DNA of 64,000 nt, from the NCBI GenBank assembly GCA_039804685.1, contig JBDLVQ010000021.1, positions 20,923 through 84,922 of the forward strand, given 5' to 3'. This document shows positions 448 through 62,068 of this stretch, one piece after another. The notes beneath the pieces were generated by a model. That model saw only the letters and a program-made list of their open reading frames with translations, was not told the DNA's origin and did not search any database. Source of the stretch: Pseudomonadota bacterium (lineage in GTDB: Bacteria; Pseudomonadota; Gammaproteobacteria; Burkholderiales; Burkholderiaceae). Position numbers and translations under genes: made by a program. Positions within the stretch are counted from its first letter, which is position 1; each line of letters begins with the position of its first letter.

Positions 448-861
448 TTACTTAACTAACGGTAAACCCGCCTGATTCCAAGCAGAAATACCACCATCTA
501 AGCATGCAACCTCAGAAAATCCAGCTTTTTTGAACTTTCCAGAAGCTGTATTTGCTCTATAACCGCTTAAACAAACTAAAATAACAGGCTTATTGCTGTC
601 TAACTTCAGTTGTTTAATGCCATTATCCAAATCAGCTAAAGGTAAGTGCTTTGATTGAGCTATGTGCCCAGCCTTGTACTCATCGGCTGTACGTATATCA
701 ACAATCTGAGCGTTTCTTTGGTTGACCCACTGAACTGCTGTGTGTACGCTAAGAAGCTGTTTGTTTAAACGACCCAAGATTTGGGGCAAGGCTAAGGCTA
801 GACCTGAGGTAACCAAGGTGGCTAGTAGCATTAAATTATTTGTATTTGTTAAGAAGTCCAT
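448..861 (-). CDS. Rhodanese-like domain protein (YibN-like, N-terminal membrane anchor)
   Basis: IVDIR...GHI and CLSGYRA loop, LDGGISAW. Start re-set to ATG at 861 (MDFLTNTNN); the longer ORF-track start overlaps gpmA. Confidence 0.9.
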   Translation of the reverse strand: MDFLTNTNNLMLLATLVTSGLALALPQILGRLNKQLLSVHTAVQWVNQRNAQIVDIRTADEYKAGHIAQSKHLPLADLDNGIKQLKLDSNKPVILVCLSGYRANTASGKFKKAGFSEVACLDGGISAWNQAGLPLVK

Positions 862-883
862 CAGTAAATTATAGAATGTGAAT
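862..883. promoter_or_regulatory. Overlapping divergent -10 elements (bidirectional promoter)
   Basis: TATAAT on - strand (868-873) 6 nt before the rhodanese ATG; TAGAAT on + strand (872-877) 6 nt before the gpmA ATG; no SD for either gene. Confidence 0.65.
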
Positions 884-1576
884 ATGAAACAACTAGTACT
901 TATTCGCCATGGCGAATCCCAATGGAACCTAGAAAACCGTTTTACCGGCTGGGTTGATGTAGATTTAACACCGACCGGTATCCAGCAAGCAACGCAAGCT
1001 GGCGAAAGTTTAAAGGCTGCAGGGTATGATTTTGACATTGCTTACACTTCTGTGCTTAAAAGGGCTATTCGGACTCTTTGGCACACTCAAGAAGCAATGG
1101 ATAGACTTTGGCTGCCTGTTGTCCACAGTTGGAGGTTAAATGAGCGCCACTATGGTGCTTTGGCAGGCCTTAATAAAGCAGAAACTGCTCAAAAATACGG
1201 TGATGAACAAGTTCATATTTGGAGAAGGTCTTATGACGTACGACCGCCCCTACTAGATCCAACTGATCCAAGAGCTTCATTTAATGACCCCCGCTACGCC
1301 AAGTTAAAGCGTGAAGAAATTCCTTTGGGGGAGTGTTTAAAAGACAACGTTGCTCGAGTTATTCCACTTTGGGAAGAATCGATTGCTCCTGCGCTTCGTG
1401 CAGGAAAGCGAGTATTAATTGCCGCTCACGGCAATAGCATTCGCTCACTTGTAAAGTATTTAGACAATGTTTCTGATGCAGACATTATGGAAATCAACAT
1501 CCCAAATGGAGTTCCGTTAGTCTACGAGCTAGACGATAACCTTAAACCAATTAAGCACTTTTACTTAGAAAAATAA
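884..1576 (+). CDS. gpmA: 2,3-bisphosphoglycerate-dependent phosphoglycerate mutase
   Basis: [27 protein letters not shown] motifs. Start taken as ATG 884 ([10 protein letters not shown]). Confidence 0.97.
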
Positions 1577-1578
1577 AT

Positions 1579-3015
1579 ATGTATCGCTCAATTAAGAGTA
1601 TTGCCCTCATTTGTACAGGCCTGATTGCTGGGGTTGCACTAACCCTGCAACTTTCAGCAACAGCCCAGCAAAATGGCTCCAACCTTCCTTTAGATGAATT
1701 AAGAAGTCTATCTAATGTGTTTGGTCAAATCAAACGAGATTATGTTGAGCCAGTTGATGATAAAAGACTATTAACTGATGCGATCAAAGGTATGGTTAGC
1801 GGCTTAGATCCGCACTCATCATATTTAGATAAAAAAGACTTTGCTGAAATGCAAGAACATACTCAAGGCAAATTTGCAGGCCTTGGCATTGAAATCACTT
1901 CAGAGGATGGCGTAGTTAAGGTCATGAACCCGATTGAAGACACCCCAGCAGCAAGAGCTGGCATTCAATCTGGAGACTTAATTACACGTCTAGATGACAA
2001 ACCAGTTCGTGGCATGACTTTAGATCAAGCCGTTCGTCGTATGCGTGGCGAACCTGGTACAAAAATTACTTTAACTATTTTCAGAAAGAGTGAAGATAGA
2101 ACTTTCCCAATCACGATCACTCGCGCTGAAATTAAAGTTCAATCCGTCAAAACCAAACTATTGGATAACGGCATTGCTTATGTTCGAATCACCAGCTTTC
2201 AAGAGCGTACGATTCCAGATCTAGCCAAAAAATTAAATGAATTAACTACAAAAGATTCTCAAATTAAAGGCTTGGTTCTAGATTTACGTAACAACGGTGG
2301 TGGCCTTCTTCAAGGTGCTGTTGGGGTTTCAGCAGCCTTTTTACCAAACGATGCTTTAGTGGTTTCAACCAAAGGTCAAGCTGAAGATGCCAAGCAATTA
2401 TTCACAGCTAACTTTAGTAACTACCGCTTATCAGAAAATAAGGACGTATTAGCTGAACTTAATCCAGTTTTCAAAAAAGTACCTATGGTTGTCTTAGTTA
2501 ATGCTTTCTCAGCATCAGCCTCAGAGATTGTTGCTGGGGCATTACAAGATCACAAACGTGCGACCATCATTGGCAAAACAACTTTTGGTAAAGGTTCGGT
2601 TCAAACTGTAAGGCCATTAAGTGCAGATTCTGCTCTTAAGCTAACCACAGCTTACTACTACACACCTTCAGGCAAATCAATTCAAGCATTTGGCGTCAAG
2701 CCAGATATTCCTGTTGATCAGAATTTAGAAGGCGACCCTGATGATGTTTTGATTACAAGAGAAATTGACAGCGAGAAGCATCTCAAGAATAAGCAAGCTT
2801 CTGAAGAAAAATTAATCAATGATCGTGAAAAGCGTCGCCTAGAAGAACTTCAGCGCATTGAAGAAATGAATGCAAAGAAATCCACTGAAGACAAAGAAAA
2901 GGATCGTAAAAAACGTCCTCCAGAGTTTGGATCAGCGGAAGACTTCATGCTAACGCAAGCTGCCGCTTACCTAAAAGGGCAACCTGTCAAACGCTCTAAA
3001 TCACGCCTTGAGTAA
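1579..3015 (+). CDS. ctpA: S41 family carboxy-terminal processing protease
   Basis: Signal peptide, PDZ region (GLGIEI), LDLRNNGGG, catalytic SASASEI and GKGSVQ motifs. Confidence 0.93.
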   Translation: MYRSIKSIALICTGLIAGVALTLQLSATAQQNGSNLPLDELRSLSNVFGQIKRDYVEPVDDKRLLTDAIKGMVSGLDPHSSYLDKKDFAEMQEHTQGKFAGLGIEITSEDGVVKVMNPIEDTPAARAGIQSGDLITRLDDKPVRGMTLDQAVRRMRGEPGTKITLTIFRKSEDRTFPITITRAEIKVQSVKTKLLDNGIAYVRITSFQERTIPDLAKKLNELTTKDSQIKGLVLDLRNNGGGLLQGAVGVSAAFLPNDALVVSTKGQAEDAKQLFTANFSNYRLSENKDVLAELNPVFKKVPMVVLVNAFSASASEIVAGALQDHKRATIIGKTTFGKGSVQTVRPLSADSALKLTTAYYYTPSGKSIQAFGVKPDIPVDQNLEGDPDDVLITREIDSEKHLKNKQASEEKLINDREKRRLEELQRIEEMNAKKSTEDKEKDRKKRPPEFGSAEDFMLTQAAAYLKGQPVKRSKSRLE

Positions 3016-3029
3016 TCAGAGATTAGCGC

Positions 3030-3782
3030 ATGAATGATCAAGATCTTCTTCGCTATTCTCGACACATCCTTCTAGAGGAAATTGGCATAGAAGGCCAAGA
3101 AAAAATCTTGGCCTCTCATGTCGTCATTGTTGGCGCCGGCGGTCTTGGATCAGCTGCAGCACCTTACTTAGTTGCAGCAGGTGTTCAAACAATCACGCTT
3201 ATTGATCATGACACGGTTGATCTTACAAATCTTCAGCGCCAAATCATGCATCAGCATGCATCAGTAGGAAAACCTAAAGTTTTATCGGGAAAAGATACTT
3301 TAGAAAAGTTAAATCCTGCGATCAAAGTGAATGCACTTCAAGAGAAAGCAAGCCCATCATTACTCAATGAGCTATTACCAAGAGCAACGGTTGTACTTGA
3401 TTGCAGTGATAATTTCACTACTAGACAATTAGTTAATGAACTATGCATCCAACATCATGTGCCATTAGTCAGTGGATCTGCGATACGCTTTGATGGTCAA
3501 GTTAGCGTATTTGATCATCGTAAAGATAATTCACCCTGCTACGCTTGCGTCTTCCCTAAAGACCAAAGCTTTGATGAAGTGCAATGTTCAACGATGGGTG
3601 TTTTCTCTCCATTAGTAGGCATCATCGGCACAATGCAAGCTGCACAAGCACTGCAGATCATCATGGATATTGGGCAAACGCTCAATGGTAGATTATTGCT
3701 TTGGGATGCACGCTCAACTGAAATTAATCAGATTCAAATTAACAAACAGCACAACTGTCCTGTTTGCTCTATAAAGAATTAA
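3030..3782 (+). CDS. HesA/MoeB/ThiF family adenylyltransferase
   Basis: RYSRHILL, GAGGLGS, DxVDLTNLQRQ, CYAC and CPVC zinc motifs. Confidence 0.93.
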   Translation: MNDQDLLRYSRHILLEEIGIEGQEKILASHVVIVGAGGLGSAAAPYLVAAGVQTITLIDHDTVDLTNLQRQIMHQHASVGKPKVLSGKDTLEKLNPAIKVNALQEKASPSLLNELLPRATVVLDCSDNFTTRQLVNELCIQHHVPLVSGSAIRFDGQVSVFDHRKDNSPCYACVFPKDQSFDEVQCSTMGVFSPLVGIIGTMQAAQALQIIMDIGQTLNGRLLLWDARSTEINQIQINKQHNCPVCSIKN

Positions 3783-5529
3783 TCTTATTCAAAGCTGCTT
3801 GTAAATCTTCCGGCTCAATTGCAGACAGCAATTGATCAACGGCCAGCTTCAAACTTCCTACGTCAGCACGCAAGACTTCTTTCTTTACAGAAAGCAGTTG
3901 ATTGAAGTGTAGCGAAAAATCAGTTAAACCCATCCCTAACAAAACTCTCGTCATAGATGCTTCGCCTGCCATCTCCCCGCAAACGGAAACTGGCATATTG
4001 GCAGCTTTTGCATCACGAATCACTCCTGCAATTAATCTTAAAACGGCAGGGTGCAGAGGATCATATAAATGGGCCACTGCGTTGTCAGCACGATCAATAG
4101 CTAGGGTGTACTGAATTAAGTCATTTGTACCAATTGATAAGAAATCCAAGCGCTTAATAAATAATGGCAGCGCAAGCGCAGCAGCTGGAATTTCAATCAT
4201 CGCGCCAACGCGCACGTAGGGGTCAAATAAAATGCCGCGCTCTTCCAATTGCTTTTTAGCAGTATCGATAAGATCCAAAGTCTGATCAATTTCTTGAGCA
4301 TGCGCCAACATTGGAATTAAGATTTTCATTTTTCCAAAAGCAGACGCTCTAAGAATGGCTCGAATCTGAATCAAGAACATATCTGGCTCTGATAAAGACC
4401 ACCGAATAGCCCTAAGTCCTAAGGGTGATAGATACGCCGAGTGGCCATCCTCATCAACATCCAAAGGTTTGTCAGCGCCAATATCAATCGTTCTAATAGT
4501 TACAGGTAGCCCCTTCATGGCCTCAGCTGTTTTTCTGTAAGCCCAGAACTGCTCTTCTTCATCGGGCATATGCCCTTTGCGATTCATGAACAAGAATTCA
4601 GATCTAAATAAGCCAATCCCAACAGCACCCGACTCTAAAGCCAATGAAGCATCATCAGGCATTTCAACGTTTGCCATTAAATCAACTGCCACACCATCTA
4701 AAGTAAATGTAGGGGTATGCTTGAGTCTTAAGAGTTTTTTCTTTTCTAACTTTCTTTGAGATTGAAGATGACGGTACTCTTCAAGAATCAAAGGACTTGG
4801 GTCAACAATAACAATACCGCGGTCACCATCGATAATTAACCAATCATCCTGATGAATAAGTTCGCTCGCACGCCTCACGCCCACAGCTGCAGGTATATCT
4901 AAACTTCTAGCAACAATCGCGGTGTGAGATGTTCTGCCACCCAAATCTGTAATAAAGCCGCCAAAGGCCACATCTTTAAAACGCATCATATCTGGTGGTG
5001 CTATGTCATGAGCAACCACAATGACTTCGGATAATTGATCGCCATCACTGACGCTCTTATAAAAAGAATTCAGAGTTTGATGATCTGCGCCATGGTGTAG
5101 AACTTTCATCACACGCTCAACCACCTGCCTAATATCTGTAGCCCGCTCTCGAAGATATTCATCTTCAATTTCAGCAAACTGCTCTAATAAATCTTCAAGC
5201 TGAGTGGCTAACGCCCATTCAGCGTTATATCTTCTTGACTTAATTAGCTCTAATGGTTTTTCTGTCAGAGTAGGATCTGCCAAAATCATGCCATGAACAT
5301 CTAAGAACGCCGCCATCTCTTCTGGGGCGGCATCAGGCAAACTTGCTCTGATGCTTTTTAATTCACCACGAACAACCTCGAACGCATTCAATAATCTTTT
5401 TTCTTCTTCTGCCTCTGTACCTTCGGGAACCAGGTAATGCTTTACATCCATTGCCGATGGAGCAATACGTAAAGCCCTACCAATAGCTATTCCGCTGGTA
5501 ACTGGGACGCCGTGAAGAGTAAAGGACAA
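3769..5529 (-). CDS. ptsI: PEP-protein phosphotransferase (PTS enzyme I)
   Basis: GGRTSHTAI phospho-His motif, GLFRSEFLF, SIGTNDLIQY, VCGEMAG. Confidence 0.96.
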   Translation of the reverse strand: MSFTLHGVPVTSGIAIGRALRIAPSAMDVKHYLVPEGTEAEEEKRLLNAFEVVRGELKSIRASLPDAAPEEMAAFLDVHGMILADPTLTEKPLELIKSRRYNAEWALATQLEDLLEQFAEIEDEYLRERATDIRQVVERVMKVLHHGADHQTLNSFYKSVSDGDQLSEVIVVAHDIAPPDMMRFKDVAFGGFITDLGGRTSHTAIVARSLDIPAAVGVRRASELIHQDDWLIIDGDRGIVIVDPSPLILEEYRHLQSQRKLEKKKLLRLKHTPTFTLDGVAVDLMANVEMPDDASLALESGAVGIGLFRSEFLFMNRKGHMPDEEEQFWAYRKTAEAMKGLPVTIRTIDIGADKPLDVDEDGHSAYLSPLGLRAIRWSLSEPDMFLIQIRAILRASAFGKMKILIPMLAHAQEIDQTLDLIDTAKKQLEERGILFDPYVRVGAMIEIPAAALALPLFIKRLDFLSIGTNDLIQYTLAIDRADNAVAHLYDPLHPAVLRLIAGVIRDAKAANMPVSVCGEMAGEASMTRVLLGMGLTDFSLHFNQLLSVKKEVLRADVGSLKLAVDQLLSAIEPEDLQAALNKINSL

Positions 5530-5799
5530 TTATTCGCCCTCACCAAATCGATCATTGATTAAAGCTTTCAGAGCATCAAAAGCTTCTTGTTCTTTTTCTC
5601 CAGATGTTTCTAGCGTCACAACACTGCCCATACCAGCTGCCAGCATCATGACGCCCATAATACTTTTTGCATTAACCTTACGCCCACCCTTAGATAAAAA
5701 GATTTCACTAGGAAACTGTCCTGCCAACTGAGTTAACTTAGCTGAGGCCCTGGCATGCAAACCTAATTTATTAATGATGTTGATGTCTTCGCTAGGCAT
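5530..5799 (-). CDS. ptsH: HPr phosphocarrier
   Basis: GLHARAS (His15) and NAKSIMG (Ser46). Confidence 0.96.
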   Translation of the reverse strand: MPSEDINIINKLGLHARASAKLTQLAGQFPSEIFLSKGGRKVNAKSIMGVMMLAAGMGSVVTLETSGEKEQEAFDALKALINDRFGEGE

Positions 5800-5801
5800 C
5801 T

Positions 5802-6251
5802 TTATTCCTTACTAAGTATTTTTTCCGAAGGTGACGCGTCAATTGGAACTCCCAGATGTCCGATCGGGAGAATCCCCTGTTGGCCACCATGCATAGCTTT
5901 TTGCATAGCCGAATCCAAGGACTCACCACGATATGAGATTGCTCTCATGAGCATAGGTAAATTAATACCCGTCAAAACTCTAACGCGACCCTCAAATATT
6001 GCTTTGTGAGCTAGGCGACTGGCAACGTTCGCTGGCGTGGCCCCCATGATGTCAGTCAACACAAGCAATCCATTTTTAGAATGGATCGATAGAGCAGCTT
6101 CCGTTGCCTTTTCAAGTGTTAATTTGGCATCTTCATGAGCCATAACATCAAGAGCCACTATACGATCTGGCACCTCTCCATAAACATGACGCACAAATTC
6201 TTTAAGTGCGGATGCCAAGGGTGCATGAGCGATGATTAAAATTCCAGCCAT
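5802..6251 (-). CDS. PTS EIIA component, mannose/fructose family
   Basis: IIAHAPLA, LTDIMGATPAN, GINLPML motifs. Confidence 0.9.
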   Translation of the reverse strand: MAGILIIAHAPLASALKEFVRHVYGEVPDRIVALDVMAHEDAKLTLEKATEAALSIHSKNGLLVLTDIMGATPANVASRLAHKAIFEGRVRVLTGINLPMLMRAISYRGESLDSAMQKAMHGGQQGILPIGHLGVPIDASPSEKILSKE

Positions 6252-6253
6252 TA

Positions 6254-7195
6254 TTAATTCAAATATTTTTCTAAATTATTAAGCCACTGCTTTGCAACAT
6301 CATGACCTGTTTGCTCTGTAATTTCAACAAAACATGTCGGACTGGTTACATTAATTTCTGTTAAATATCCACCGATAAAATCTAAGCCCACCAGATGTAA
6401 GCCACGCGCTGCCAATTGAGGCCCAATCTTAGTTGCCACATCTAATTCTTTCTGTGATAACTTTTGAGCAACGCCACGACCACCTGCGGCCAAATTACCC
6501 CTTACTTCACCCTCTTGAGGAATTCTGGCAAGCGAAAAAGGAACAGGCTCTCCACCAATTAAGAGTACTCTTTTATCTCCTTGAATAATTTCAGGGATAA
6601 ATTTTTGAACCATTAAAGCGCGGCGACCAACATCTCCTAAGCTCTCAACAATACTAGCAATATTTAGGCCATCTTGTTTGACCCTAAAAATGCCCATGCC
6701 TCCCATACCATCAAGAGGTTTAATGATAATGTCCTCATGTTGACGATGGAATGCTTTGATATCTTCTAAATCATGGCTGATGATTGTTGGTGGTGCAAAT
6801 TCTAAGAACTCAAGCAAAGCTAATTTTTCAGAATGATTTCTAAGGGCCTCCGGGCAATTGAATACCTTTGCACCTTGGCGAACTGCTTCTGATAAAAACC
6901 ATGTGGCCGTTACGTAGCTAACATCAAACGGCGGGTCTTTTCTCATGATCACCGCATCAAAAGAAGGAAGATTCAATGTATCAACAACTAACTTCTGATA
7001 CCAATCAAGCTCTAGACGATCAACTTTAATCTGCTGACATCGGGCCTTCATCAAACCATCAATACTTTTCAAGTCATGCACATGACAATGCCAAACCTCA
7101 TGACCCGCTGCTTGTGCAGCATCCATCATGGCTAAAGTGCTATCTTTTTTAACAGCAAAACTATTTAGTGGGTCCGCAATAAATAAAAATTTCAT
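6254..7195 (-). CDS. gshB: Glutathione synthetase
   Basis: KDSTLAM, MRKDPPFD, KPLDGMGG, RGNLAAGG, TEINVTSPT. Confidence 0.97.
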   Translation of the reverse strand: MKFLFIADPLNSFAVKKDSTLAMMDAAQAAGHEVWHCHVHDLKSIDGLMKARCQQIKVDRLELDWYQKLVVDTLNLPSFDAVIMRKDPPFDVSYVTATWFLSEAVRQGAKVFNCPEALRNHSEKLALLEFLEFAPPTIISHDLEDIKAFHRQHEDIIIKPLDGMGGMGIFRVKQDGLNIASIVESLGDVGRRALMVQKFIPEIIQGDKRVLLIGGEPVPFSLARIPQEGEVRGNLAAGGRGVAQKLSQKELDVATKIGPQLAARGLHLVGLDFIGGYLTEINVTSPTCFVEITEQTGHDVAKQWLNNLEKYLN

Positions 7196-7197
7196 TA

Positions 7198-8493
7198 TTA
7201 ATTATCTGCATCCGGGTCTGTACGCTCGAGCTCTAAAGATGCTGCTAATAAAGCAAGTCTTGCTACAACACCATATAAATAAAAACGATTGGGCACTGCT
7301 ACGCCAGGCTTGGCACCAACATCAGGGATTGTGTTGTGATCAAAGGCCAATGGTACAAAGTGCATCCCAGGAGAATTAAGATTCTCATCAACACCCCGAC
7401 CTGTATGAACACGATAAAAACCACCAACAACATAACGGTCCATCATATAAACAACTGGCTCTGAAACAGCCTCATTAATTTTTTCAAATGTGTAAACACC
7501 TTCTTGGACTAACACATCTGAAACTTCTAAACCCTCTTTGACGACACTCATCTTATTTCGTTCTTTACGATTAAGATCCTTCACCTCACTAGCATCTTTA
7601 ACAGTCATGATGCCCATGCCATATGTACCCGCATCGGCCTTAACAATCACATATGGCTTTTCTTTAATGCCATATTCGCGATATTTACGAGCTGTTTTTT
7701 TCAAGATAGTATCTACGGCGTCTTGTAACTCCTGCTCACCAATGCGCTCATGAAAATTAATCCCTGAACATTTGCTGAAGAATGGATTAATCATCCATGG
7801 GTCAATGTCGATAACTTTTGAAAACTTCTTCGCCACATCATCATAAGCAGCAAAGTGGTTTGATTTACGACGCACTGACCAGCCTGAATGTATCGGCGGC
7901 AATACGTATTGCTCATGCAGGTTTTCCAAGATGGCAGGAACGCCACCTGACAAATCATTATTCAAAAGAATAGTGCAAGGATCAAAATCCTTGAGACCTA
8001 GTCGACGGCCTTTAATACCTAATCTAACCAATGGCTCCAAAATAAGTCTTTGGCCATCTGGCAAATCAATTGGCGTGGGTTTTGTGATTTCTTCAGATAA
8101 AGATCCCAAACGAACATTTAAGCCTGTTTGTCTCAGTATCGACGCCAAACGTGCCACGTTTTGCAAATAAAACACATTGCGCGTGTGACGCTCAGGAATC
8201 AATAATAGATTTTTTGCATCAGGGCATATTTTTTCAATGGCGGCCATCGCGGCTTGAACAGCCAAAGGCAACATTTCTGGAGATAAATTATTAAATCCAC
8301 CAGGAAATAAATTTGTATCAACTGGTGCTAACTTAAACCCAGCATTTCGCAAATCAACAGAACAGTAAAAAGGTGGTGTGTGCTCTTGCCACTCCAATCT
8401 AAACCATCGCTCGATAGCGGGCGTAGCTTCTAAAACCTTGCGCTCTAATTCAAGCAAGGGGCCATTAAGGGCTGTAATCAAATGAGGTACCAT
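7198..8493 (-). CDS. gshA: Glutamate-cysteine ligase (betaproteobacterial GshA type)
   Basis: YCSVDLRNAGFKLAPVDTNLFPGGFNNL, KADAGTYGMG; directly upstream of gshB. Confidence 0.93.
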   Translation of the reverse strand: MVPHLITALNGPLLELERKVLEATPAIERWFRLEWQEHTPPFYCSVDLRNAGFKLAPVDTNLFPGGFNNLSPEMLPLAVQAAMAAIEKICPDAKNLLLIPERHTRNVFYLQNVARLASILRQTGLNVRLGSLSEEITKPTPIDLPDGQRLILEPLVRLGIKGRRLGLKDFDPCTILLNNDLSGGVPAILENLHEQYVLPPIHSGWSVRRKSNHFAAYDDVAKKFSKVIDIDPWMINPFFSKCSGINFHERIGEQELQDAVDTILKKTARKYREYGIKEKPYVIVKADAGTYGMGIMTVKDASEVKDLNRKERNKMSVVKEGLEVSDVLVQEGVYTFEKINEAVSEPVVYMMDRYVVGGFYRVHTGRGVDENLNSPGMHFVPLAFDHNTIPDVGAKPGVAVPNRFYLYGVVARLALLAASLELERTDPDADN

Positions 8494-8513
8494 GCCACCA
8501 TTCTAAGACAGAT

Positions 8514-8550
8514 AAAAAAAGAGCGGGTTCTTATTCAGAATCCGCTCTTT
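8514..8550 (-). terminator. Intrinsic terminator of torF-glnK-amtB
   Basis: AAAGAGCGG/CCGCTCTTT stem extended by TTCT/AGAA, followed by a 7-U run on the - strand. A second hairpin CCCCTAAA/TTTAGGGG lies at 8556-8579. Confidence 0.8.
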
Positions 8551-8623
8551 AAATCCCCCTAAATTTGGACTTTTAGGGGTTACTCCACACTACATTTCAC
8601 ACAGATTTACGAAAAATCACTAA

Positions 8624-10111: not shown

Positions 10112-10123
10112 TTTTAACCTCGC

Positions 10124-11286
<1,163 letters not shown>

Positions 11287-11337
11287 GTAGTGCACTCCTA
11301 ATAAACAATCCAAGGGAAATTCCTTGCGTTTAAGATA

Positions 11338-11353
11338 AGCAAAAGCTATGCCA
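11338..11353 (-). promoter_or_regulatory. Sigma54 (-24/-12) promoter
   Basis: TGGCATAGCTTTTGCT; GG and GC are 12 nt apart as in TGGCAC-N5-TTGCW. Confidence 0.88.
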
Positions 11354-11371
11354 GTTTTATTTATATCAATA

Positions 11372-11384
11372 AATCAATGACTTA
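11372..11384 (+). promoter_or_regulatory. IHF binding site
   Basis: AATCAATGACTTA matches WATCAANNNNTTR and lies between the sigma54 promoter and the NtrC sites. Confidence 0.75.
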
Positions 11385-11423
11385 TATTTATAATTATTTG
11401 GAAAGAGCTCTAATTGAAGGTGT

Positions 11424-13104: not shown

Positions 13105-13710
13105 TTAATAAGGCTTAAACCCACTCAGAAACATACTATGCTCATCTGAGCTTAAAGTTTTTTCTAAGTCTTGATTAGATGTCAGTGTCTGCAGGATGGT
13201 TTGTTGATAAATTAAAATTTGACCATCAGAAAAGACTCTTTGAACCAGACGAGTTCGCATCAATCGGCGCTGACCATCTGGTCCCAAACCATCAATGACC
13301 CATTCTTTAGCAGGCAATTTTTCTGATGCTTGGCCAGAGGTATTGATTGTGATTGCTTGGGGGGCGACAGCTTGGCTTGTTTTCAAATTACTCAAAATGC
13401 CTGACTGAATAAATTCCAGCAATTGAGACATATGTGCCGATGATCTTAATTCAGGCGGCACTTGAATCACCCCAATGGCATACAAGCCATCTTTTACCTT
13501 AACAGCCTCCATGGTCATCGTTAACTTTTGCTGCTGAAACAACATGGTCTTTTCAGCACGACTTGGCTTGCCAGGATAGAGAGCCTCATACATCAGGTCA
13601 TCAGAACGGACTGTGCGCCAATCAAATGTTGGCGTACAAGCTGAAAGCGCCAACAAAAGACACAAAAATGAAAAGAGGCGGTTTATCAACATAAAAGAAT
13701 TATTTTGCAT
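13105..13710 (-). CDS. Conserved hypothetical lipoprotein
   Basis: Lipobox LSAC followed by TPTFDWR, typical of a Burkholderiales-conserved family. Confidence 0.75.
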   Translation of the reverse strand: MQNNSFMLINRLFSFLCLLLALSACTPTFDWRTVRSDDLMYEALYPGKPSRAEKTMLFQQQKLTMTMEAVKVKDGLYAIGVIQVPPELRSSAHMSQLLEFIQSGILSNLKTSQAVAPQAITINTSGQASEKLPAKEWVIDGLGPDGQRRLMRTRLVQRVFSDGQILIYQQTILQTLTSNQDLEKTLSSDEHSMFLSGFKPY

Positions 13711-13721
13711 AAAATGTGATT

Positions 13722-14252
13722 ATGCCCACTCCATCTATATTTCGTTTATTTATTAGCGCGAGATGCTTGTCATTGATAAGCGCACTTATGCTCATATTTA
13801 GTATCGCTGCTTGTTCTTCAGATACGCAACAATCCATGCCTAACTTTAAAGTGTCAGAAATATCAGGCCACCAACTGACGCAAGATGATTTTAAAAACAA
13901 GGTGGTTATTTTTAATTTTTGGGCAACCAGCTGCACCACATGTGTGAAAGAGATGCCTCAGCTTGTAGAAACCTATCAAAAATATAAAAATACGGGGCTC
14001 GAATTAACCGCTGTAGCTATGGCCTATGATCCCCCGATGTATGTGGTCAACTTCGCAGAAACCAGAAAGCTTCCATTTAAAGTTGTTTTAGATTCTGATG
14101 GTAGTGTTGCCAAAGCTTTTGGAAAGATTCAGTTAACGCCAACGACTATCGTTGTTGATAAAAAAGGCAAGATTATTAAGCGATATGTTGGCGAACCAGA
14201 CTGGACTGAATTTCATCAGCTCATTGAAAAGTCTTTAGCTGAAAAAGCCTAA
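13722..14252 (+). CDS. TlpA/ResA-like thiol-disulfide reductase (lipoprotein)
   Basis: Lipobox IAAC, NFWATSCTTCVKEMP, PTTIVVDK. Confidence 0.9.
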   Translation: MPTPSIFRLFISARCLSLISALMLIFSIAACSSDTQQSMPNFKVSEISGHQLTQDDFKNKVVIFNFWATSCTTCVKEMPQLVETYQKYKNTGLELTAVAMAYDPPMYVVNFAETRKLPFKVVLDSDGSVAKAFGKIQLTPTTIVVDKKGKIIKRYVGEPDWTEFHQLIEKSLAEKA

Positions 14253-16138: not shown

Positions 16139-16139
16139 A

Positions 16140-17171: not shown

Positions 17172-17179
17172 AAGCAAAA

Positions 17180-18268
17180 TTATATAGAGGAAGATCGCAT
17201 TAGACGCTTGAGTAAAGATAAGGATGCCCCAATTGGCCAAATCCAGGCAAGCCAAGCCATTAAATGATTAAAGTGAATTAATCGGCCTTGTCGCCATTCT
17301 TGAATGGTGAGGATGTAATAAGGATTTTTGGGAAGGAAATTGACCAACAAGACCATGCCCACCAAACTTAATACCGCCACCAAATATAACCACCTTTTTT
17401 TAAGTTGCAAAACAGCGATCAAAATCAAAGTAGAAAAAATCATTCCCCATAACGCAGCGGGTGTTAACCACAAGAAACTCTTATCGACCCCAAACTGCAT
17501 GCCAGAAAAAAGTGCTTTTAAAACAATAGTAGCAACTAGCAAAGTTAATAGTAGCCGCACTCTAGGGGCGCTCAACCGCATGGTGATGGCTAGACATGAG
17601 CCAGCTGCCAACCAAGCAACCATTGTTGTTGCTATCTCTAAGGCGGCAAAATTAAATGTATCTTTCCAAATAGCTTGGTTAGCCCAAACTCCGCCCCAAT
17701 CACCCATAGCCAACCATGCTGTTTGAGGATAAATTTGAGCAAATGGGAAAGCCATCATCAAAATAATTCCGCTCGTGTGCAGGCCAAACCACTCTATACG
17801 TCGATGTTGAAATGCACTGCCTGACAACCATCTCGGATCCATTGGCATGGCTAAGAGCGCTCCAATAGTCGCGCCACCCATATTGGCCCACCAATCAACA
17901 TTACTTGGAATCCGAGTCGATAACCAAGTTTGTAAAGATTCCAATGAGCCAGATACCAAGCCCCCTAATAACAAAGCGAATAAAAGAGCCTTATAAGCTT
18001 TCAGGCGAGGATAGATGGCAAATACGGTTAAAAAACCTAAAGGCAAATAACCCAAAATATTAGTAAAAACATCAAATGAAGTGATGTATCTGGGGATTGG
18101 CGCATTCACCCAATCAAATATTCCGGCACCAACTGCAACATTAAAGTTAAATGGATAAATACTTGCGTAGACAATCAACAACACATAGGCAAAAGCAGCT
18201 ATGCGGGCTGTTGGCATAGGTAAATCTGGCCAAGATAAGCGCTGAGGACGTTGAAAATTGTCTGACAT
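17180..18268 (-). CDS. VanZ family membrane protein
   Basis: FDVFTNILGYLPLG, LESLQTWL..R.PSNVDW..N..G; polytopic. Confidence 0.85.
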   Translation of the reverse strand: MSDNFQRPQRLSWPDLPMPTARIAAFAYVLLIVYASIYPFNFNVAVGAGIFDWVNAPIPRYITSFDVFTNILGYLPLGFLTVFAIYPRLKAYKALLFALLLGGLVSGSLESLQTWLSTRIPSNVDWWANMGGATIGALLAMPMDPRWLSGSAFQHRRIEWFGLHTSGIILMMAFPFAQIYPQTAWLAMGDWGGVWANQAIWKDTFNFAALEIATTMVAWLAAGSCLAITMRLSAPRVRLLLTLLVATIVLKALFSGMQFGVDKSFLWLTPAALWGMIFSTLILIAVLQLKKRWLYLVAVLSLVGMVLLVNFLPKNPYYILTIQEWRQGRLIHFNHLMAWLAWIWPIGASLSLLKRLMRSSSI

Positions 18269-18294
18269 ATGCACATAGTACCTACAATATCAAT

Positions 18295-20551: not shown

Positions 20552-20569
20552 AAATGAGATATTAACCGA

Positions 20570-29806: not shown

Positions 29807-29823
29807 AGCGCCTATATTACCTC

Positions 29824-31584: not shown

Positions 31585-31629
31585 AAATATTTACTTAATT
31601 AGTTATTGTTTTAATGTTAATCTTAAAAA

Positions 31630-47243: not shown

Positions 47244-47256
47244 TGATAATAATTAT

Positions 47257-48174
47257 ATGTGTTTATTCAAGCACCTCCTAACTCCGAAGCTAATCATGGT
47301 TTATTTCATATTTGCCATTATTTCTGGGTGTAGTGCTGTTCGCCTGATATACAACCAAGGGGACACCCTCACCTATTGGTGGCTAGATGATCATATTGGC
47401 TTTAATTCAGAGCAGGAGGCCTTTACCAGGTCGTCTTTAGAGCATCTTTTTGGGTGGCATCGAACAGAACAGTTGCAAGCCATTGCTACGACATTAGATA
47501 AAGCTCAACAAAAGCTTCAAAAGCCCATATCTAAAGAAGAGATGATGGGTTTAACAAGCGACTTTAAAAAACATGGTTACAGCATATTTGATCAAATCAT
47601 CCCTGATGCAGCCAAATTAGTAATTAGCCTAGAGCCAGGACAAATTGACTCGATCGAAAAACGGTTTGCAAAAAACAATGAAAAGTTTCGTAAAGAGTTT
47701 TTACCGGACAATAAAGATAAACAAGTGAAAGTTCGGGCCGACAGAGTTATTGACAGAACCGAATGGCTATTTGGTGGCCTTAGCAAAGATCAAGAAAAAA
47801 AGATTCGAGAGTTTTTACTTAATCATCCAGTCGATATGGAGATGGTCTACAAAGAGCGATTGCGTAGACAATCAGATTTCATTCAAATTTGCAAAGAAGT
47901 GAATCAAAAGAAGTTAAATCAAAAAGCAACAGAGGCCCTGTTAAAAGACTACATGAAGTTCTTTGAGGCTGGCAAAACAAAAGATCAGCAAGCTTTTAAC
48001 AAAAAATGGATGGAAACCGGGGCGGAGGTCACATCATTCATTACACAGATAATGAATGATGAGCAACGTCAACACGCTTTCGAAAGAATTGGTGGGTGGG
48101 TGGCAGATGTGCGAGAACTGATTAGAGATTCATCTGCACTGGCTGCCAAGAGATCTGCTCCTCTAAATCGATAG
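47257..48174 (+). CDS. DUF6279-like lipoprotein
   Basis: Lipobox [12 protein letters not shown]....YWWLD, WHR..QL; start uncertain (47257 or 47296). Confidence 0.78.
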
Positions 48175-55307: not shown

Positions 55308-55366
55308 GTTTTTTCGATGTAGCATAGACCTAATCATGCCTTATTTTTTCATTTTTTGAGCAGCTA

Positions 55367-55936
55367 GTGATAACTTTAAATTCTCTTCGCCAAGACTTAT
55401 TGCAAAAAAGATTGGATCTTCACAAAGATCTTGAAATCAGGGATGCGCTTGAAAAAAGCTTAATTAAGTATCTTGAACAATTTGACCAAGGTTGCTTGGC
55501 GATTTACTGGCCCATTAACAGTGAATTTGATCCAAGACCTCTAGCTCTCAACTGGGCCAGGCAGCATGCGACCAAAAAATTGGCTCTACCGATCGTGAAA
55601 ATTAATCAGCCATTGATTTTTGCGGAGTGGCATGACGGCGACAAGCTTGAGAAGGGGCCTCAAGGAATTCCACAGCCAATTCTCAATGCCAATGGCGCTA
55701 ACGGCATTCAACCCAATATCATTCTTTTGCCTTGCCTAGGATGGTCTTCTCAAAAAGGTCACTTTTGGAGGCTGGGCTATGGTGGCGGATACTACGATAG
55801 AACTTTAGAGTCTTACCGCACAAATGGCCATGCCGTGAAGGCTGTAGGAGTCGCTTACGGGGCCCTAGAAATAAAAGAGGACGCATGGCGTCCTCAATCT
55901 CATGATCAAGCTCTTGACGAGCTTATATGCGCTTAG
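55367..55936 (+). CDS. 5-formyltetrahydrofolate cyclo-ligase
   Basis: YWPINSEFD, ALP, RLGYGGGYYDRTL. Confidence 0.92.
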   Translation: MITLNSLRQDLLQKRLDLHKDLEIRDALEKSLIKYLEQFDQGCLAIYWPINSEFDPRPLALNWARQHATKKLALPIVKINQPLIFAEWHDGDKLEKGPQGIPQPILNANGANGIQPNIILLPCLGWSSQKGHFWRLGYGGGYYDRTLESYRTNGHAVKAVGVAYGALEIKEDAWRPQSHDQALDELICA

Positions 55937-55937
55937 C

Positions 55938-56765
55938 TCAAATTAAATTGAGCTCTTTAGCAATTGTTAGAGTTGGCTCTGCTTGATTTAGGCTATAGAA
56001 ATGCAATCCAGGGGCTCCAGCCAACATCAACTGATCGCATAAATCAGTTACTACGTCCAAACCAAATGCTTTGATAGATGCTGTGTCATCACCAAAAGAT
56101 TGAAGTCTTAAGCGAATCCATCGTGGAATTTCAGCGCCACAAGCATCAGAGAACCGTAACAATTGGGTGCTATTTGTAATAGGCATGATGCCCGGGACAA
56201 TTGGTTCATCAACTCCTAACTTAGCCGCCTCATCTACAAACTTAAAATAGGCATCGCTATTGAAAAAATACTGGGTTATTGCTGAATCTGCCCCAGCTTT
56301 CATTTTGTTGGCGAAGCGTTGCACATCATCAGTCATTGATTTTGCTTGTGGATGCATTTCTGGATAAGCTGCCACTTCAATATGAAAATGACTATCTGTC
56401 TCAGATCGAATGAATCGAACCAATTCATCAGCATGATGAAATTCACCGTACTGGCCCATTCCTGATGGCAAATCACCTCTTAATGCAACAATCCGTTGAA
56501 TACCCAGCGCTTTGTATTGCGCTAACAATTCACTGATTTTTTCCTTTGAGCTACCCACACAGGATAGATGGGGCGCAGCTTGCTGACCAGCCTCATGTAT
56601 TTCTTTAACAGCAGAAAAAGTGCCATCTTGGGTTGATCCACCTGCTCCAAAAGTAACAGAGAAAAATGTTGGCTTGAGCGCTGTTGCAAGTTGCTCACGC
56701 ACGGTGCGCAACTTAGCAGCTCCTTCCGGTGTTTTTGACGGGAAAAACTCAACGCTCAATTCCAT
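55938..56765 (-). CDS. metF: Methylenetetrahydrofolate reductase
   Basis: SVEFFP, SVTFGAGGS, ALRGD, AAYPE, ITQYFF, GLHFY. Confidence 0.97.
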   Translation of the reverse strand: MELSVEFFPSKTPEGAAKLRTVREQLATALKPTFFSVTFGAGGSTQDGTFSAVKEIHEAGQQAAPHLSCVGSSKEKISELLAQYKALGIQRIVALRGDLPSGMGQYGEFHHADELVRFIRSETDSHFHIEVAAYPEMHPQAKSMTDDVQRFANKMKAGADSAITQYFFNSDAYFKFVDEAAKLGVDEPIVPGIMPITNSTQLLRFSDACGAEIPRWIRLRLQSFGDDTASIKAFGLDVVTDLCDQLMLAGAPGLHFYSLNQAEPTLTIAKELNLI

Positions 56766-56794
56766 CTAATTTCTTTCTCTATTAATTCAGGATC

Positions 56795-58234
56795 TTAATA
56801 ACGATATGTTTCAGGCTTGTAAGGGCCTTCTTTTTTCACGTTAATGTAATTGGCTTGTTGATCGCTTAGCTCTGTCAACTGTGCGTTCAATTTTTTCAAT
56901 TGCAAACGTGCAACTTTTTCATCCAAATGCTTAGGCAATGTGTAAACGCCAACTGGGTACTTATTGGTATCAGCGGTGGTCCACAACTCGATCTGTGCAA
57001 TTGTTTGATTCGCGAATGAAGAGCTCATCACATAAGATGGGTGCCCCGTACCACAACCCAAATTCACTAAGCGACCTTTTGCCAAAATGATGATGCGCTT
57101 TTCAGCCTGACCATTGCTAGCCGGGAAAATAACGTGATCAACTTGCGGCTTAATTTCTTCCCATTTGTACTTTTCAACACCTGCAATATCAATCTCATTG
57201 TCAAAGTGCCCGATATTACAAACAATCGCCTGATCTTTCATCTTAACCATGTGATCATGAGTAATCACATGGTAGTTACCGGTTGCCGTAACAAAAATAT
57301 CTGCTTTGTCAGCAGCGTAGTCCATTGTTACAACCCGATAACCTTCCATAGCTGCCTGTAACGCACAAATTGGATCAACTTCAGTCACCCAAACCTGTGC
57401 AGATAAAGCGCGTAGAGCTTGAGCAGAACCCTTACCTACATCGCCGTAACCTGCAACAACTGCCACTTTGCCTGCAACCATGACATCTGTTGCGCGCTTG
57501 ATACCATCAACCAATGATTCGCGGCAACCGTACAAATTATCAAACTTGCTCTTGGTAACTGAGTCATTAACGTTAATCGCTGGGAATTTCAACTCACCCT
57601 TAGCATGCATTTGATATAAGCGATGAACGCCAGTTGTTGTCTCTTCTGTAACGCCCTTAACTTTTTCTAAGCGTACTGAATACCATGTTGGATCAACTTT
57701 TAGTTTTGATTTGATGGATGCAAAAAGAACTGTTTCTTCTTCGCTAGTTGGGTGATTCAAAACCGATAAATCTTTTTCAGCCTTTGTTCCCAAATGTAGC
57801 AACATCGTTGCATCACCACCGTCATCCAAAATCATGTTCGAGAAGCCGCCATCTTGCCATTCGAAAATGCGATGAGTGAATTCCCAATATTGCTCCAAGG
57901 TCTCACCCTTGATTGCAAACACAGGCGTGCCATTTGCTGCAATCGCTGCAGCTGCATGGTCTTGTGTTGAGAAAATATTGCATGAAGCCCAGCGGACTTC
58001 TGCACCAAGCGCCTCTAATGTTTCAATCAATACCGCAGTTTGAATAGTCATGTGCAAAGAACCCGTAATACGTGCACCGCGTAATGGTTGGCTTGCAGCA
58101 AACTCTTCGCGAATTGCCATCAAACCTGGCATTTCTGTTTCAGCAATAGCAATTTCTTTGCGTCCCCAAGCTGCTAATGAAATATCAGCAATAGCGCAAT
58201 CTTTAAGAATATCTAAATCATTTGGTTTGTTCAT
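56795..58234 (-). CDS. ahcY: Adenosylhomocysteinase
   Basis: [39 protein letters not shown]. Confidence 0.98.
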
Positions 58235-58270
58235 TACCACTCCAAGCTAGTAAGGAAGATCTTGGAGAGC

Positions 58271-58313
58271 AAATAAAAAGCTCGCCAACCAATTCACTTC
58301 CAGGTTAGCGAGC
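58271..58313 (-). terminator. Terminator forming the SAH riboswitch expression platform
   Basis: 11 bp stem GCTCGCTAACC/GGTTGGCGAGC followed by TTTTTATTT. Confidence 0.8.
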
Positions 58314-58390
58314 GTCGTTGCTAAAGGCTGTAAAGCCCCCTCTAAGCCTAGGGTGTCAGAACTTCGACACCTCGCAACGCTCCTTAGAGA
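58310..58390 (-). ncRNA. SAH riboswitch
   Basis: TCTAAGGAGCGTTGCGA...CTAGGCTTAGA...AACGACGCTC; P1 TCTAAG/CTTAGA, P2 GGTGTC/GACACC, pseudoknot GAGCG/CGCTC; upstream of ahcY. Confidence 0.92.
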
Positions 58391-58400
58391 TTTCGAAAAA

Positions 58401-59567
58401 TTATAAACCAGCAGCGGCTCTTAATGCTGCGGCCTTATCTCTTGCTTCCCATGTGAACTCCGGCTCTTCACGGCCAAAGTGTCCATAAGCAGCAGTTTTA
58501 CGATAAATTGGGCGAAGAAGATTTAACATCTTTACTATGCCCTTTGGCCTTAAATCAAAGTGAGTGCGCACTAACTCAGCAATCTTCTCATCCGAAACCT
58601 TGCCTGTGCCAAACGTACTGACCATCACTGATGTTGGCTGAGCAACACCAATCGCATATGAAATTTGGACCAAACACTTGCTTGCCAAACCCGCCGCCAC
58701 AATATTTTTAGCGACATAACGACCCGCATAAGCAGCTGAGCGGTCAACCTTTGAAGGATCCTTACCAGAGAAGGCACCACCGCCGTGAGGGGCTGCACCA
58801 CCGTAGGTGTCCACAATAATTTTGCGACCAGTTAAACCACAATCTCCCTGTGGGCCACCAATAACAAAGCGACCTGTTGGGTTCACCAAGTACTTAATTT
58901 CACCTTTGATTAACTCTTTAGGCAAAACCGGTTTGATAATTTCTTCAATCACAGCTTCGCGTAGTTTTTCTAAAGAAATATCTGGTGAGTGCTGTGTTGA
59001 TAAAACGATTGTGTCGATTGAATCAGGCTTGCCATCTACATAACGTAAAGTTACTTGTGATTTCGCATCTGGGCGCAACCAGTTCAAGCGGCCATCACGA
59101 CGCAAGTCAGCTTGACGCTCGACCAAACGATGTGACAAATGAATCGGTAAAGGCATTAATTCTGGAGTCTCATCAACAGCGTAACCAAACATCAAGCCTT
59201 GATCGCCAGCGCCTTGATCTAGGCCATCATCATGGGCTTTATCAACGCCTTGAGCGATATCAGGGCTTTGCTTGTCATAAGCCACTAAAACAGCGCAACC
59301 CTTGTAATCAATACCATATTCAGTATTGTCGTAACCAATTTGACGAATAGTGTCACGGGCTACGTTGATGTAATCAACGTTAGCTGTTGTTGTAATTTCA
59401 CCGGCAAGCACTACCAAACCTGTATTGCACAGAGTTTCTGCGGCAACACGTGCTGTAGGGTCTTGAGCCAAAATGGCGTCAAGAATCGCATCAGAAATTT
59501 GGTCAGATACTTTGTCTGGGTGACCTTCAGAAACAGACTCTGAAGTAAAGAAGTAGTTGTTAGACAT
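58401..59567 (-). CDS. metK: S-adenosylmethionine synthetase
   Basis: [33 protein letters not shown]. Confidence 0.98.
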
Positions 59568-59623
59568 TTGAAGCTCCTTAGTTAAATAACCGACAACACG
59601 TGCCGAGTATTACCAAGTGCGGC

Positions 59624-59678
59624 GACGCTTTAGCGGATAGTTTTAATTCGCCCCGCAAGTTGTCTTAACTCGGCGAAT
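59624..59678 (-). ncRNA. SAM-II-like riboswitch aptamer (variant)
   Basis: ATTCGCC-GAGTTAA-GAC-AAC-TTGC-GG-GGCGAAT-TAAAACTATCC-GCTAAA-GC-GTC: 7 bp P1, TTGC/GCTAA core, GAC/GTC P2a, TAAA in L3. Confidence 0.75.
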
Positions 59679-59685
59679 ACCCTAA

Positions 59686-59715
59686 ATTCTATAACATTCT
59701 CACTTTTAGTGGCAA
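59686..59715 (-). promoter_or_regulatory. Sigma70 promoter of metK
   Basis: TTGCCA-N18-TAGAAT, placing the start site just before the aptamer. Confidence 0.65.
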
Positions 59716-59733
59716 ACCTGTATATTTACCCCT

Positions 59734-60609
59734 ATGACAAGTACAAGATTACGCTTTACCAAAATGCATGGCGCCGGCAATGATTTCATTGTTTTAGATG
59801 GCATTTCTCAAGATCTTTCAAAGATCACTAAAGAGCAATGGCAAGCTTTGGCTCACCGTCAATTTGGCATTGGCGCAGATCAGATTTTATTAGTTGAAAA
59901 ACCGACTGAAGCAGATGCTGAATTCCGCTACAGAATCTTCAACTCTGACGGTGGCGAAGTTGAACAATGCGGCAATGGCTCACGCTGCTTTGTTAGATTT
60001 GTCAGAGAAAAAGGTTTAACCAAGAATAAAACCGTCAAAGTTCAAGTGGCCCATACCATCCTCGCTCTCACCGAGAATGATGACGGAGAGGTAACTGTGA
60101 ATATGGGGGCACCCATTTTGTCGACTGAATTAGTGCCGTTCAATTCCCTAGGGCTTGAAAACAAACCTGATGGTAGCTCATTGATTTACGAACTCAAACT
60201 TGCCGAAGATTCTGCATGGGTTGGGACAGTGTCCATGGGTAATCCACACGCCGTTCAAATAGTTGCAGATGTTGAAACCGCACCCGTTGAAATCCAGGGG
60301 CCGCAAATTGAAAAACATTCAGCATTTCCTAAAAAGGTGAATGCGGGATTTATGCAAATTCAAAATCGCCATGAAATTAAATTACGTGTCTTTGAAAGAG
60401 GTTCAGGAGAAACTCTCGCCTGCGGCACAGGCGCATGTGCGGCTGTAGTTTCTGGAATCCTAAGAGGTCACCTTGACTCACCGGTGAAAGTGCATACCCG
60501 TGGCGGTGACCTCAGCATTGCTTGGAATAACAAAGCCTCCGTAGACTCGCCCGTTATGATGACGGGCCCCGCACAGACAGTATTTGAGGGTGAAGTTACC
60601 CTAGATTAA
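59734..60609 (+). CDS. dapF: Diaminopimelate epimerase
   Basis: [36 protein letters not shown]. Confidence 0.97.
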
Positions 60610-61281
60610 TTAAATGCCGTATTGGTCGCGATACGCTTTAACTGCCGGTAGGTACTGCTGCAAATCTGCACTTTGTCCAGACTCTAAAAAGCTCATCAAG
60701 CTCGCCAAATTAGCAATAGAAACTACTGGCATGCCAAACTCTTTTTCAACATTTTGAACTGCTGAGCTATTTCCGATTTCAGTTGCTGTACCTGAGCGCT
60801 CCATACGGTCAAGTGCGATTAATACTGCTGCTGGCGTAGCCCCCGCATGGCGAATAATATCCACAGACTCACGAACAGATGTGCCTGCAGAGATGACGTC
60901 ATCAATAATGACCACGCGACCTTTTAATGGAGCGCCAACTAGTGTGCCACCCTCACCATGATCTTTTGCCTCTTTACGATTAAAGCAAAAAGGCACAGGT
61001 CTTCCCATGCCAGCCAATGCCACAGCAGTTGTTGCAGCCAAAGTAATACCTTTATATGCAGGGCCAAACAGCATATCGAACTCAATGCCTGAATTGATCA
61101 AAGCTTTTGCGTAGAATTCGCCTAATGCTTTTAATAAGGCGCCATCATTAAAGCCGCCGGCATTAAAAAAGTAAGGTGATAATCGTCCTGCTTTTGTTTT
61201 AAATTCGCCAAAAGATAAAACTTTGGCATCTAAAGCAAAATGGATAAAGTCGTTTTTAAAGTTTTCTTGATTGGAAGTCAT
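60610..61281 (-). CDS. pyrE: Orotate phosphoribosyltransferase
   Basis: [40 protein letters not shown]; start ATG 61281. Confidence 0.97.
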
Positions 61282-61288
61282 AACCGAG

Positions 61289-62068
61289 ATGTTACGCATC
61301 ATTACAGCCAACCTCAATGGTATTCGCTCAGCCGCTAAAAAAGGTTTCTTTGAGTGGGTCAATACTCAAAGCCCAGACATCCTTTGTATTCAAGAACTTA
61401 AGGCTCAAGAAGCGGACCTAGATGAAGCACTCTTAGCGCCATTGGGGTATCACGGCTTTTTCCAATATGCCCTGAAAAAAGGTTACAGCGGAGTTGGTTT
61501 GTACTCCAAGAAAAAGCCCGATTCAGTCAAAATTGGTTTTGATTCAGGAGAATTTGATGCTGAGGGTCGCTATGTTGAAGCACGCTTTGGCAAGCTCATC
61601 GTGATCTCAGCTTATTTTCCTTCAGGCTCGAGCGCTCCAGAGCGTCAAGAAGCAAAATTTAGGTTTCTAGATTTATTCATGCCTCACCTAAAAAGCCTTA
61701 AGGCTGAAGGCTTAGAGATTGTATTGTGTGGCGACATTAACATTGCACACCAAGAAATTGATCTGAAAAACTGGAAAGGCAATATTAAAAACTCTGGCTT
61801 CCTTCCAGAGGAGCGTGATTGGATGACTCAGCTTTTCAATGATGTTGGTTATGTTGATGTTTACCGATCATTGCACCCAGATACAACAGATGATTGTTAC
61901 ACCTGGTGGAGTCAAAGAGGTCAAGCCTACGCTAAAAATGTTGGGTGGCGCATTGATTACCAAATTGCAACGCCTGGCATTGCTCAAAAGGCCAAAAAGA
62001 TTGAAATTTATAAATCAGAAAAATTCTCTGATCACGCACCGCTGATTGTGGACTACGACACTATGTAA
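61289..62068 (+). CDS. xth: Exodeoxyribonuclease III
   Basis: N.NGIR, QELK, GYSGV, YFPSG, CGD.NIAH, WRIDY, SDHAP. Confidence 0.95.

Follow-up and report, generated by a model that had tools for sequence, protein, structure and literature searches.

Genomes of GeneMarkS-2 group C, e.g. Mycobacterium tuberculosis and Deinococcus, have a share of leaderless expression of 25-50%, and 5.6% of Proteobacteria fall in this group and many Burkholderiales in group X (Lomsadze et al. 2018, PMC6028130). Among Betaproteobacteria, leaderless genes were predicted in silico at 2.8-10.6% in 9 of 71 cases (Zheng et al. 2011, PMC3160421). Differential RNA sequencing (dRNA-seq) of Burkholderia cenocepacia mapped the transcription start site (TSS) of 72 genes precisely onto the start codon and showed a TA-rich motif preceding it (PMC4603805). 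Bidirectional promoters have been described with overlapping opposite -10 elements, in which the A2/T6 geometry goes with TSSs 18 bp apart, distances of 23 and 12 bp being also listed (Warman et al., 10.1101/2020.01.31.928960). Here we analyse a hexamer of the -10 type (TANNNT) that recurs 6-8 nt before the ATG of genes in a 64,000-nt stretch of DNA, called the window below (contig JBDLVQ010000021.1 (C21), 20923-84922), and throughout its assembly (1.58 Mb, 57 contigs, 42.5% GC). The relatives found by protein search with BirA are Polynucleobacter species and metagenome-assembled genomes (MAGs) in the Burkholderiaceae, Betaproteobacteria; Polynucleobacter is a very abundant freshwater genus. 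We consider it likely that ~95-130 of these hexamers are sigma70 -10 elements from which transcription begins directly on the ATG, giving mRNAs without a leader, the majority of genes being led by a Shine-Dalgarno (SD) sequence.

As in group C genomes, a TANNNT-type -10 box stands 6-8 nt from the starts of first genes, SD sequences are missing there, and they are present elsewhere. The share seems to be lower than in those genomes, ~13-16% of putative transcription units after background correction against 25-50%, and the host is a betaproteobacterial genus. It belongs to the same family or class as the Betaproteobacteria of Zheng et al. and B. cenocepacia. Within Polynucleobacter 5-7% of genes (three genomes) are concerned, a several-fold higher share than the 0-1.3% of the five outgroups sampled, and the genes carrying boxes are housekeeping enzymes (gpmA, gshA, birA, glmU, ferredoxin), whereas the leaderless genes of B. 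cenocepacia and of Zheng et al. are mainly transcriptional regulators. The initial annotation of the window, which proposed widespread leaderless mRNAs from these hexamers, was right that this is not the usual mode in Betaproteobacteria, though the in-silico figures of PMC3160421 had been reported already. No paper linking ‘leaderless’ with Polynucleobacter was found, the genome lists in the supplements of PMC3160421 and PMC6028130 lying outside the search. The mechanism is already known (Zheng 2011; GeneMarkS-2 group C), and it is unusually common here for the family and far from the rule. What is modestly new is limited to the expansion specific to the genus and to the double-leaderless promoters frozen at divergent pairs; because the mechanism is textbook knowledge, the gain lies in lineage and architecture, and there is none in principle.

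Genes were called over the whole genome with a motif-blind caller (3-periodic Markov model), which gave 1360 genes. In the main scan the first in-frame ATG was taken as the start (1343 ATG starts), and d is the number of nt between the end of the hexamer and the ATG. Counts of TANNNT at offsets 12-49 and 300 mononucleotide shuffles of the 40 bases upstream of each gene served as controls. TANNNT was present at d = 6 in 108 genes and at d = 7 in 46, compared with 29.6 ± 6.7 per offset between 12 and 49, and the background rate is ~2.2% at any upstream offset. Against these offsets the peak at d = 6 has z = 11.8 and a Poisson P of ~1e-28. The histogram against shuffled sequence, which had been suggested together with the initial annotation, bore out its hexamers as a set, as the shuffles gave only 41.7 ± 7.0 genes at d = 6, with a maximum of 63 among the 300. 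In the window itself, TANNNT at d = 6/7 was found in 12 of 63 genes, with ~3 expected by chance.

When a fixed -10 position weight matrix (PWM) was compared at d = 6/7 and at decoy offsets under three start-calling rules, the excess amounted to 93-129 genes. Thus the suggestion that this lineage has removed most of its 5′ untranslated regions (UTRs) was not sustained: only 7-10% of the genes of the genome stand above background, in every gene class SD-like tetramers still have their maximum at 6-7 nt before the start, and a free expectation-maximization (EM) mixture of SD, -10 and no motif gives an SD share of 0.54, i.e. about half of genes. With the real spacer set, this EM put 0.57 of the spacer distribution at 6 nt and 0.26 at 7 nt. 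Its free leaderless share was 0.20, and its posterior assigned 30% of divergent genes to the leaderless class. We rejected this share (20-30%) as an estimate because a share of 0.14-0.18 came out even when decoy spacers were supplied, the motifs then being of low information, and the fixed-PWM excess was used instead; the motif TAAAAT (3.2 bits) with a sharp 6/7-nt spacer was kept by the real spacer set only.

The signal depends on gene arrangement. Among divergently transcribed genes, TANNNT at d = 6 + 7 was found in 70 of 352 (background ~18; excess ~15%), among same-strand genes with a gap of 40 nt or more to the neighbour in 43 of 423 (background ~20; excess ~5%), and among genes <40 nt behind a same-strand neighbour in 34 of 518 (background ~16; excess ~3%), so that the motif is ~4-5 times more frequent at divergent than at operon-internal genes. 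It also depends on the start codon, since the box at d = 6 precedes 9.8% of first-ATG candidates; for first-GTG and first-TTG candidates, both small sets, the figures are 2.3% and 3.6%, which is background level. Moreover, the peak is restricted to the first ATG of an open reading frame (ORF) and is not seen at later ATG candidates. The logo reads T(-12) A(-11) a A A T(-7), with consensus TAaAAT and invariant positions T1, A2 and T6. Position -1 is a pyrimidine in 75% of box genes versus 56% of SD genes, and +1 is A; a pyrimidine at -1 and an A at +1 form the usual context of transcription initiation. The first 25 nt of box ORFs fold more weakly (-0.52 versus -1.36 kcal/mol, p = 3e-9), also among operon-first genes alone (p = 5e-5), and the unstructured, G-poor stretch covers the first 25-45 nt (G 12-13% versus 18-19%). 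A weakly folded 5′ coding end would be expected for an mRNA starting at its start codon.

In the mechanism we propose, a sigma70-type -10 element (consensus TAaAAT) would make RNA polymerase start 7-8 nt after the hexamer, on the A of the ATG, and the resulting mRNA would begin with pppAUG. Translation would then need no SD sequence, ribosome and initiator tRNA binding the 5′-terminal AUG directly. About 95-130 genes (7-10% of the genome, ~15% of divergent genes) would use this mode and the others would keep SD-led initiation, and in a subset of divergent pairs, with overlapping or abutting opposite -10 boxes, one symmetric region of 11-26 nt would act as a bidirectional leaderless promoter. 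We infer the TSS position and the leaderless translation from motif, statistics, context, conservation and phylogenetic distribution, which are observed directly in the genomes.

The putative boxes cited for the window, in window coordinates, are as follows.

868..873, minus strand: -10 box TATAAT of the rhodanese gene, d = 6 to ATG 861; its TA (872-873) is common with the gpmA box
872..877, plus strand: -10 box TAGAAT of gpmA, d = 6 to ATG 884; 22 nt from the divergent rhodanese start
8500..8505, minus strand: -10 box TAGAAT of gshA, d = 6 to ATG 8493; directly after a terminator-like hairpin and T run
13710..13715, plus strand: -10 box TAAAAT of the tlpA/redoxin gene, d = 6 to ATG 13722; the first T of the box is base-paired with the A in the start codon of the opposite gene
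13719..13724, minus strand: -10-like CATAAT of the lipoprotein gene, d = 8 to ATG 13710; overlaps the tlpA start codon and is a near match only
17179..17184, minus strand: -10 box TATAAT of the ferredoxin gene, d = 7 to ATG 17171; overlaps the vanZ stop codon
18275..18280, minus strand: -10 box TACTAT of vanZ, d = 6 to ATG 18268
18283..18288, plus strand: -10 box TACAAT of birA, d = 6 to ATG 18295; divergent from vanZ, 26 nt
20559..20564, minus strand: -10 box TAATAT of rfaE2, d = 7 to ATG 20551
29814..29819, minus strand: -10-like TAATAT of the SPOR-domain gene, d = 7 to ATG 29806; 17 nt after argS
31618..31623, plus strand: -10 box TAATCT of DUF1840 (so named in the initial annotation), preceded by TGT (extended -10), d = 6 to ATG 31630
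47252..47257, minus strand: -10 box TATAAT of glmU, d = 8 to ATG 47243; near match
59721..59726, plus strand: -10-like TATATT of dapF, d = 7 to ATG 59734; weak example
61289..61294, minus strand: -10-like TAACAT of pyrE, d = 7 to ATG 61281; on the other strand these bases form the first codons of the divergent xth-like gene (ATG 61289)

On re-reading, these hexamers stand where they had been placed, with d = 6 in seven genes, d = 7 in five and d = 8 at the lipoprotein gene and glmU. An additional GATAAT, at ‘DUF6279’, had been put at 6 nt and lies 5 nt before ATG 7195. The absence of a well-placed SD sequence at the cited genes was also recovered (EM probability of SD, 0.00-0.14), and the hexamers behave as numerous, conserved and positioned putative -10 boxes, with a geometry that puts the predicted TSS on the start codon. 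That the genes are first in their operons stood only in part: the signal is enriched at divergent genes, but three cited genes follow closely behind a same-strand gene, namely ferredoxin (8 nt after vanZ), SPOR (17 nt after argS) and rfaE2 (18 nt). Since the ferredoxin box overlaps the vanZ stop codon, it would be an internal promoter.

Pfam confirmed the names of all ten proteins tested. The start of gpmA is fixed by its N-terminus, with the His_Phos_1 alignment beginning at residue 4, and GshA covers its full profile. The start of glmU is likewise fixed by the N-terminus, and the 8-nt spacing suggests that its TSS may be 1-2 nt ahead of the ATG. Homology favours the longer, box-adjacent starts of the initial annotation for the lipoprotein gene, tlpA and glmU. 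Two further observations concern these genes. Upstream of gshA, a terminator-like hairpin (gagcgg...cccgctc) with T run (window ~8506-8545, minus strand) occupies the place of a -35 element and is kept in relatives. A second full-length gpmA, 94% identical to window 884-1576, lies outside the window at C44:1691-2380, and may be a recent duplicate or a sign that the MAG mixes strains.

Conservation within Polynucleobacter was followed from gene to gene. For gshA, lipoprotein, tlpA, ferredoxin, vanZ, birA and rfaE2, the hexamer and its distance are kept while the letters of the spacer vary (7-14 Polynucleobacter loci, protein identity down to 56-60%). At gshA, TAGAAT or TAAAAT stands at 5-6 nt in 7 relatives, again with variable spacer; the tlpA box is kept in 8 relatives, and the lipoprotein CATAAT in 7, where it is partly constrained by the tlpA ATG. 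At ferredoxin, TATAAT stands unchanged at 7 nt in 13 relatives whose spacer letters differ, vanZ TACTAT and birA TACAAT are invariant in 14, and rfaE2 has TAATAT or TAAGAT at 7 nt in 10. Between the rhodanese gene and gpmA, 25 loci from 24 genomes of the genus have the arrangement CAT-N6-ATTATAGAAT-N6-ATG without exception, even though both spacers vary and rhodanese identity falls to 39-46%. In orthologues of the own genome (G000) and a second genome of the genus (G002), 7 of 16 hexamers at d = 6/7 were kept within ±1 nt, compared with 13 of 98 for decoy offsets (p = 0.008). Strict conservation at the same offset was found in 2 of 13, and inspection showed shifts of ±1 nt.

The spread of the signal was determined in eight genomes with the same pipeline on 400-kb samples. 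For each genome the GC content, the excess at d = 6/7 and z at d = 6 are given.

G000, own genome: GC 0.425, excess 7.1%, z 11.8
G002, same genus: GC 0.438, excess 6.6%, z 5.7
G061, same genus, deep branch: GC 0.483, excess 5.1%, z 7.6
G048, same family, other genus (2.4 Mb): GC 0.456, no excess, z -1.2
G040, same family, other genus (1.9 Mb): GC 0.492, no excess, z 0.1
G027, same family, other genus (1.2 Mb): GC 0.426, excess 1.3%, z -0.5
G024, same family, other genus: GC 0.646, excess 1.2%, z 2.6
G017, order-level outgroup: GC 0.497, excess 1.0%, z 1.5

Among the genomes sampled, the signal is genus-specific. Three genomes from other genera of the family are likewise small and of similar AT content (1.2-2.4 Mb, GC 0.43-0.49) and have no peak; hence the signal is not an artefact of composition or method, and a reduced genome is not by itself enough to bring about leaderless genes. 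The link to streamlining that had been drawn for this lineage is accordingly not general. In G048 and G027, 400 kb contain only ~205-210 confident genes and divergent genes are separated by 590-1100 nt, and this low coding density suggests pseudogene-rich symbionts.

With EM start calls, 0-30 nt separate the start codons in 16 of 176 divergent pairs, and spacings of 17 nt, 22 nt (five pairs, in four of which both genes have a leaderless posterior >0.5) and 26 nt (three pairs, two of them with both genes) recur, with a hexamer 6 nt from each ATG in most both-gene pairs. In the 17-nt pair, CAT GCTGTTAGATTAACGGA ATG with box region CATGCTGTTAGATTAACGGAATG, A2 of one box is paired with T6 of the other. 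By geometry only, the spacings of 11 (lipoprotein/tlpA), 17 and 22 nt (rhodanese/gpmA, with TA in common) correspond to predicted TSS-TSS distances of 12, 18 and 23 bp. The resemblance to the bidirectional promoters of Warman et al. thus lies in overlapping opposite-strand hexamers whose key positions pair, and in the predicted distances of 12, 18 and 23 bp, which are among those preferred there. They differ in that here both predicted TSSs coincide with start codons and the pairs, 11-26 nt apart, have no UTR on either side; moreover, the 27-bp class (26-nt spacing, three pairs including vanZ/birA) is missing from their list of distances. Because such pairs are only 11-26 nt apart, there is no space for a leader outside the coding sequence of the neighbour.

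At the vanZ-birA pair, the core ACATAGTACCTACAATA (window 18269-18294) is invariant in 14 loci, beyond both hexamers. As BirA has no HTH domain (Pfam), this core is unlikely to be a BirA operator, and the additional conservation must be due to a different factor or simply to promoter symmetry. Between pyrE and the xth-like exonuclease gene, 7 nt lie between the start codons (window 61282-61288), compared with 8 nt including the palindrome AGGCCT in most other species, and neither gene has leader space outside the coding sequence of the other.

Could the hexamers have arisen by chance in intergenic DNA rich in AT and have been selected by eye and through the choice of start codons? With TANNNT at the background rate at every offset, and with the latitude of the initial annotation, which allowed 6-8 nt and chose among starts (e.g. 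ATG 861 over ATG 1038), single examples are easily obtained. For the whole set this reading is refuted, since the peak stands far above both the other offsets and the shuffles, AT-matched outgroup genomes have none, and hexamers are conserved across species; we regard it as extremely improbable. It is still valid for about a quarter of the individual matches. A different proposal is that the hexamer is no promoter but an A/U-rich, non-SD element in a leadered mRNA, bound by the ribosome or S1 as in GeneMarkS-2 group B. It does lie where an SD site would, at -12 to -7, a -35 partner was not found, and there is a small operon-internal excess (25 at d = 6 versus ~8 background, n = 518). However, such a motif should be equally frequent at internal genes (PMC6028130), while here it is concentrated at divergent genes. 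Furthermore, T1, A2 and T6 are invariant as in a sigma70 -10 box and unlike a plain A-run, hexamers on opposite strands overlap in the symmetric geometries of bidirectional promoters, and the closest divergent pairs leave no room for a leader. We therefore hold a ribosome-binding role to be very unlikely.

Finally, the boxes could be real but minor, secondary or conditional promoters, or have their TSS 1-3 nt further upstream and give a very short leader, with the main expression coming from upstream promoters, leadered or by read-through. The boxes of ferredoxin, SPOR and rfaE2 just behind a same-strand gene and the 8-nt spacers at glmU and the lipoprotein gene are compatible with this, and many of the ‘leaderless’ TSSs of B. 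cenocepacia precede the start by up to 10 nt (PMC4603805). Main expression from leadered transcripts would nevertheless fit poorly with the lack of SD at the cited genes, with 5′ coding ends that are selectively unstructured, and with divergent pairs that have no other intergenic promoter space, and we find this reading unlikely. Several observations do weigh against initiation on the ATG at particular genes or in general. The dapF box is found in the three closest relatives only and is absent from more distant species, and the pyrE hexamer, though conserved, lies inside the coding sequence of the opposite gene; being that gene's first codons, its conservation is uninformative. About a quarter of the individual TANNNT matches at d = 6/7 equals the chance expectation, which makes single-gene calls uncertain. 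The coding-potential caller cut short genes with signal peptides or atypical N-termini, namely lipoprotein, tlpA, SPOR, DUF1840 and glmU (window 13593/13953, 29752, 31672 and 47204). No TSS study of Polynucleobacter was found in the literature, the sole transcriptome paper found being based on microarrays. To this side also belongs the absence of any enrichment of -35 (TTGACA, spacers 16-18) or extended -10 (TGn) elements upstream of the hexamers, which we grade as neutral.

Transcription starting on the ATG at sigma70 -10 boxes is the reading we prefer, and on it a wider one can be built, to which we give roughly an even chance: Polynucleobacter would have expanded leaderless expression several-fold over the sampled genera of its family, core housekeeping genes would be expressed from pppAUG mRNAs, and double-leaderless bidirectional promoters at quantised spacings of 11, 17, 22 and 26 nt would be frozen across the genus.

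For annotation, the motif-blind caller and simple SD-based logic misplace several box-adjacent starts, and modelling a leaderless class would improve both start-codon annotation and promoter prediction in Polynucleobacter. The invariant CAT-N6-ATTATAGAAT-N6-ATG offers a compact natural test case, in which one symmetric -10 region would drive two leaderless genes. If true, the expansion and the frozen promoters would represent a lineage-specific compaction of regulatory DNA and not a general by-product of genome reduction.

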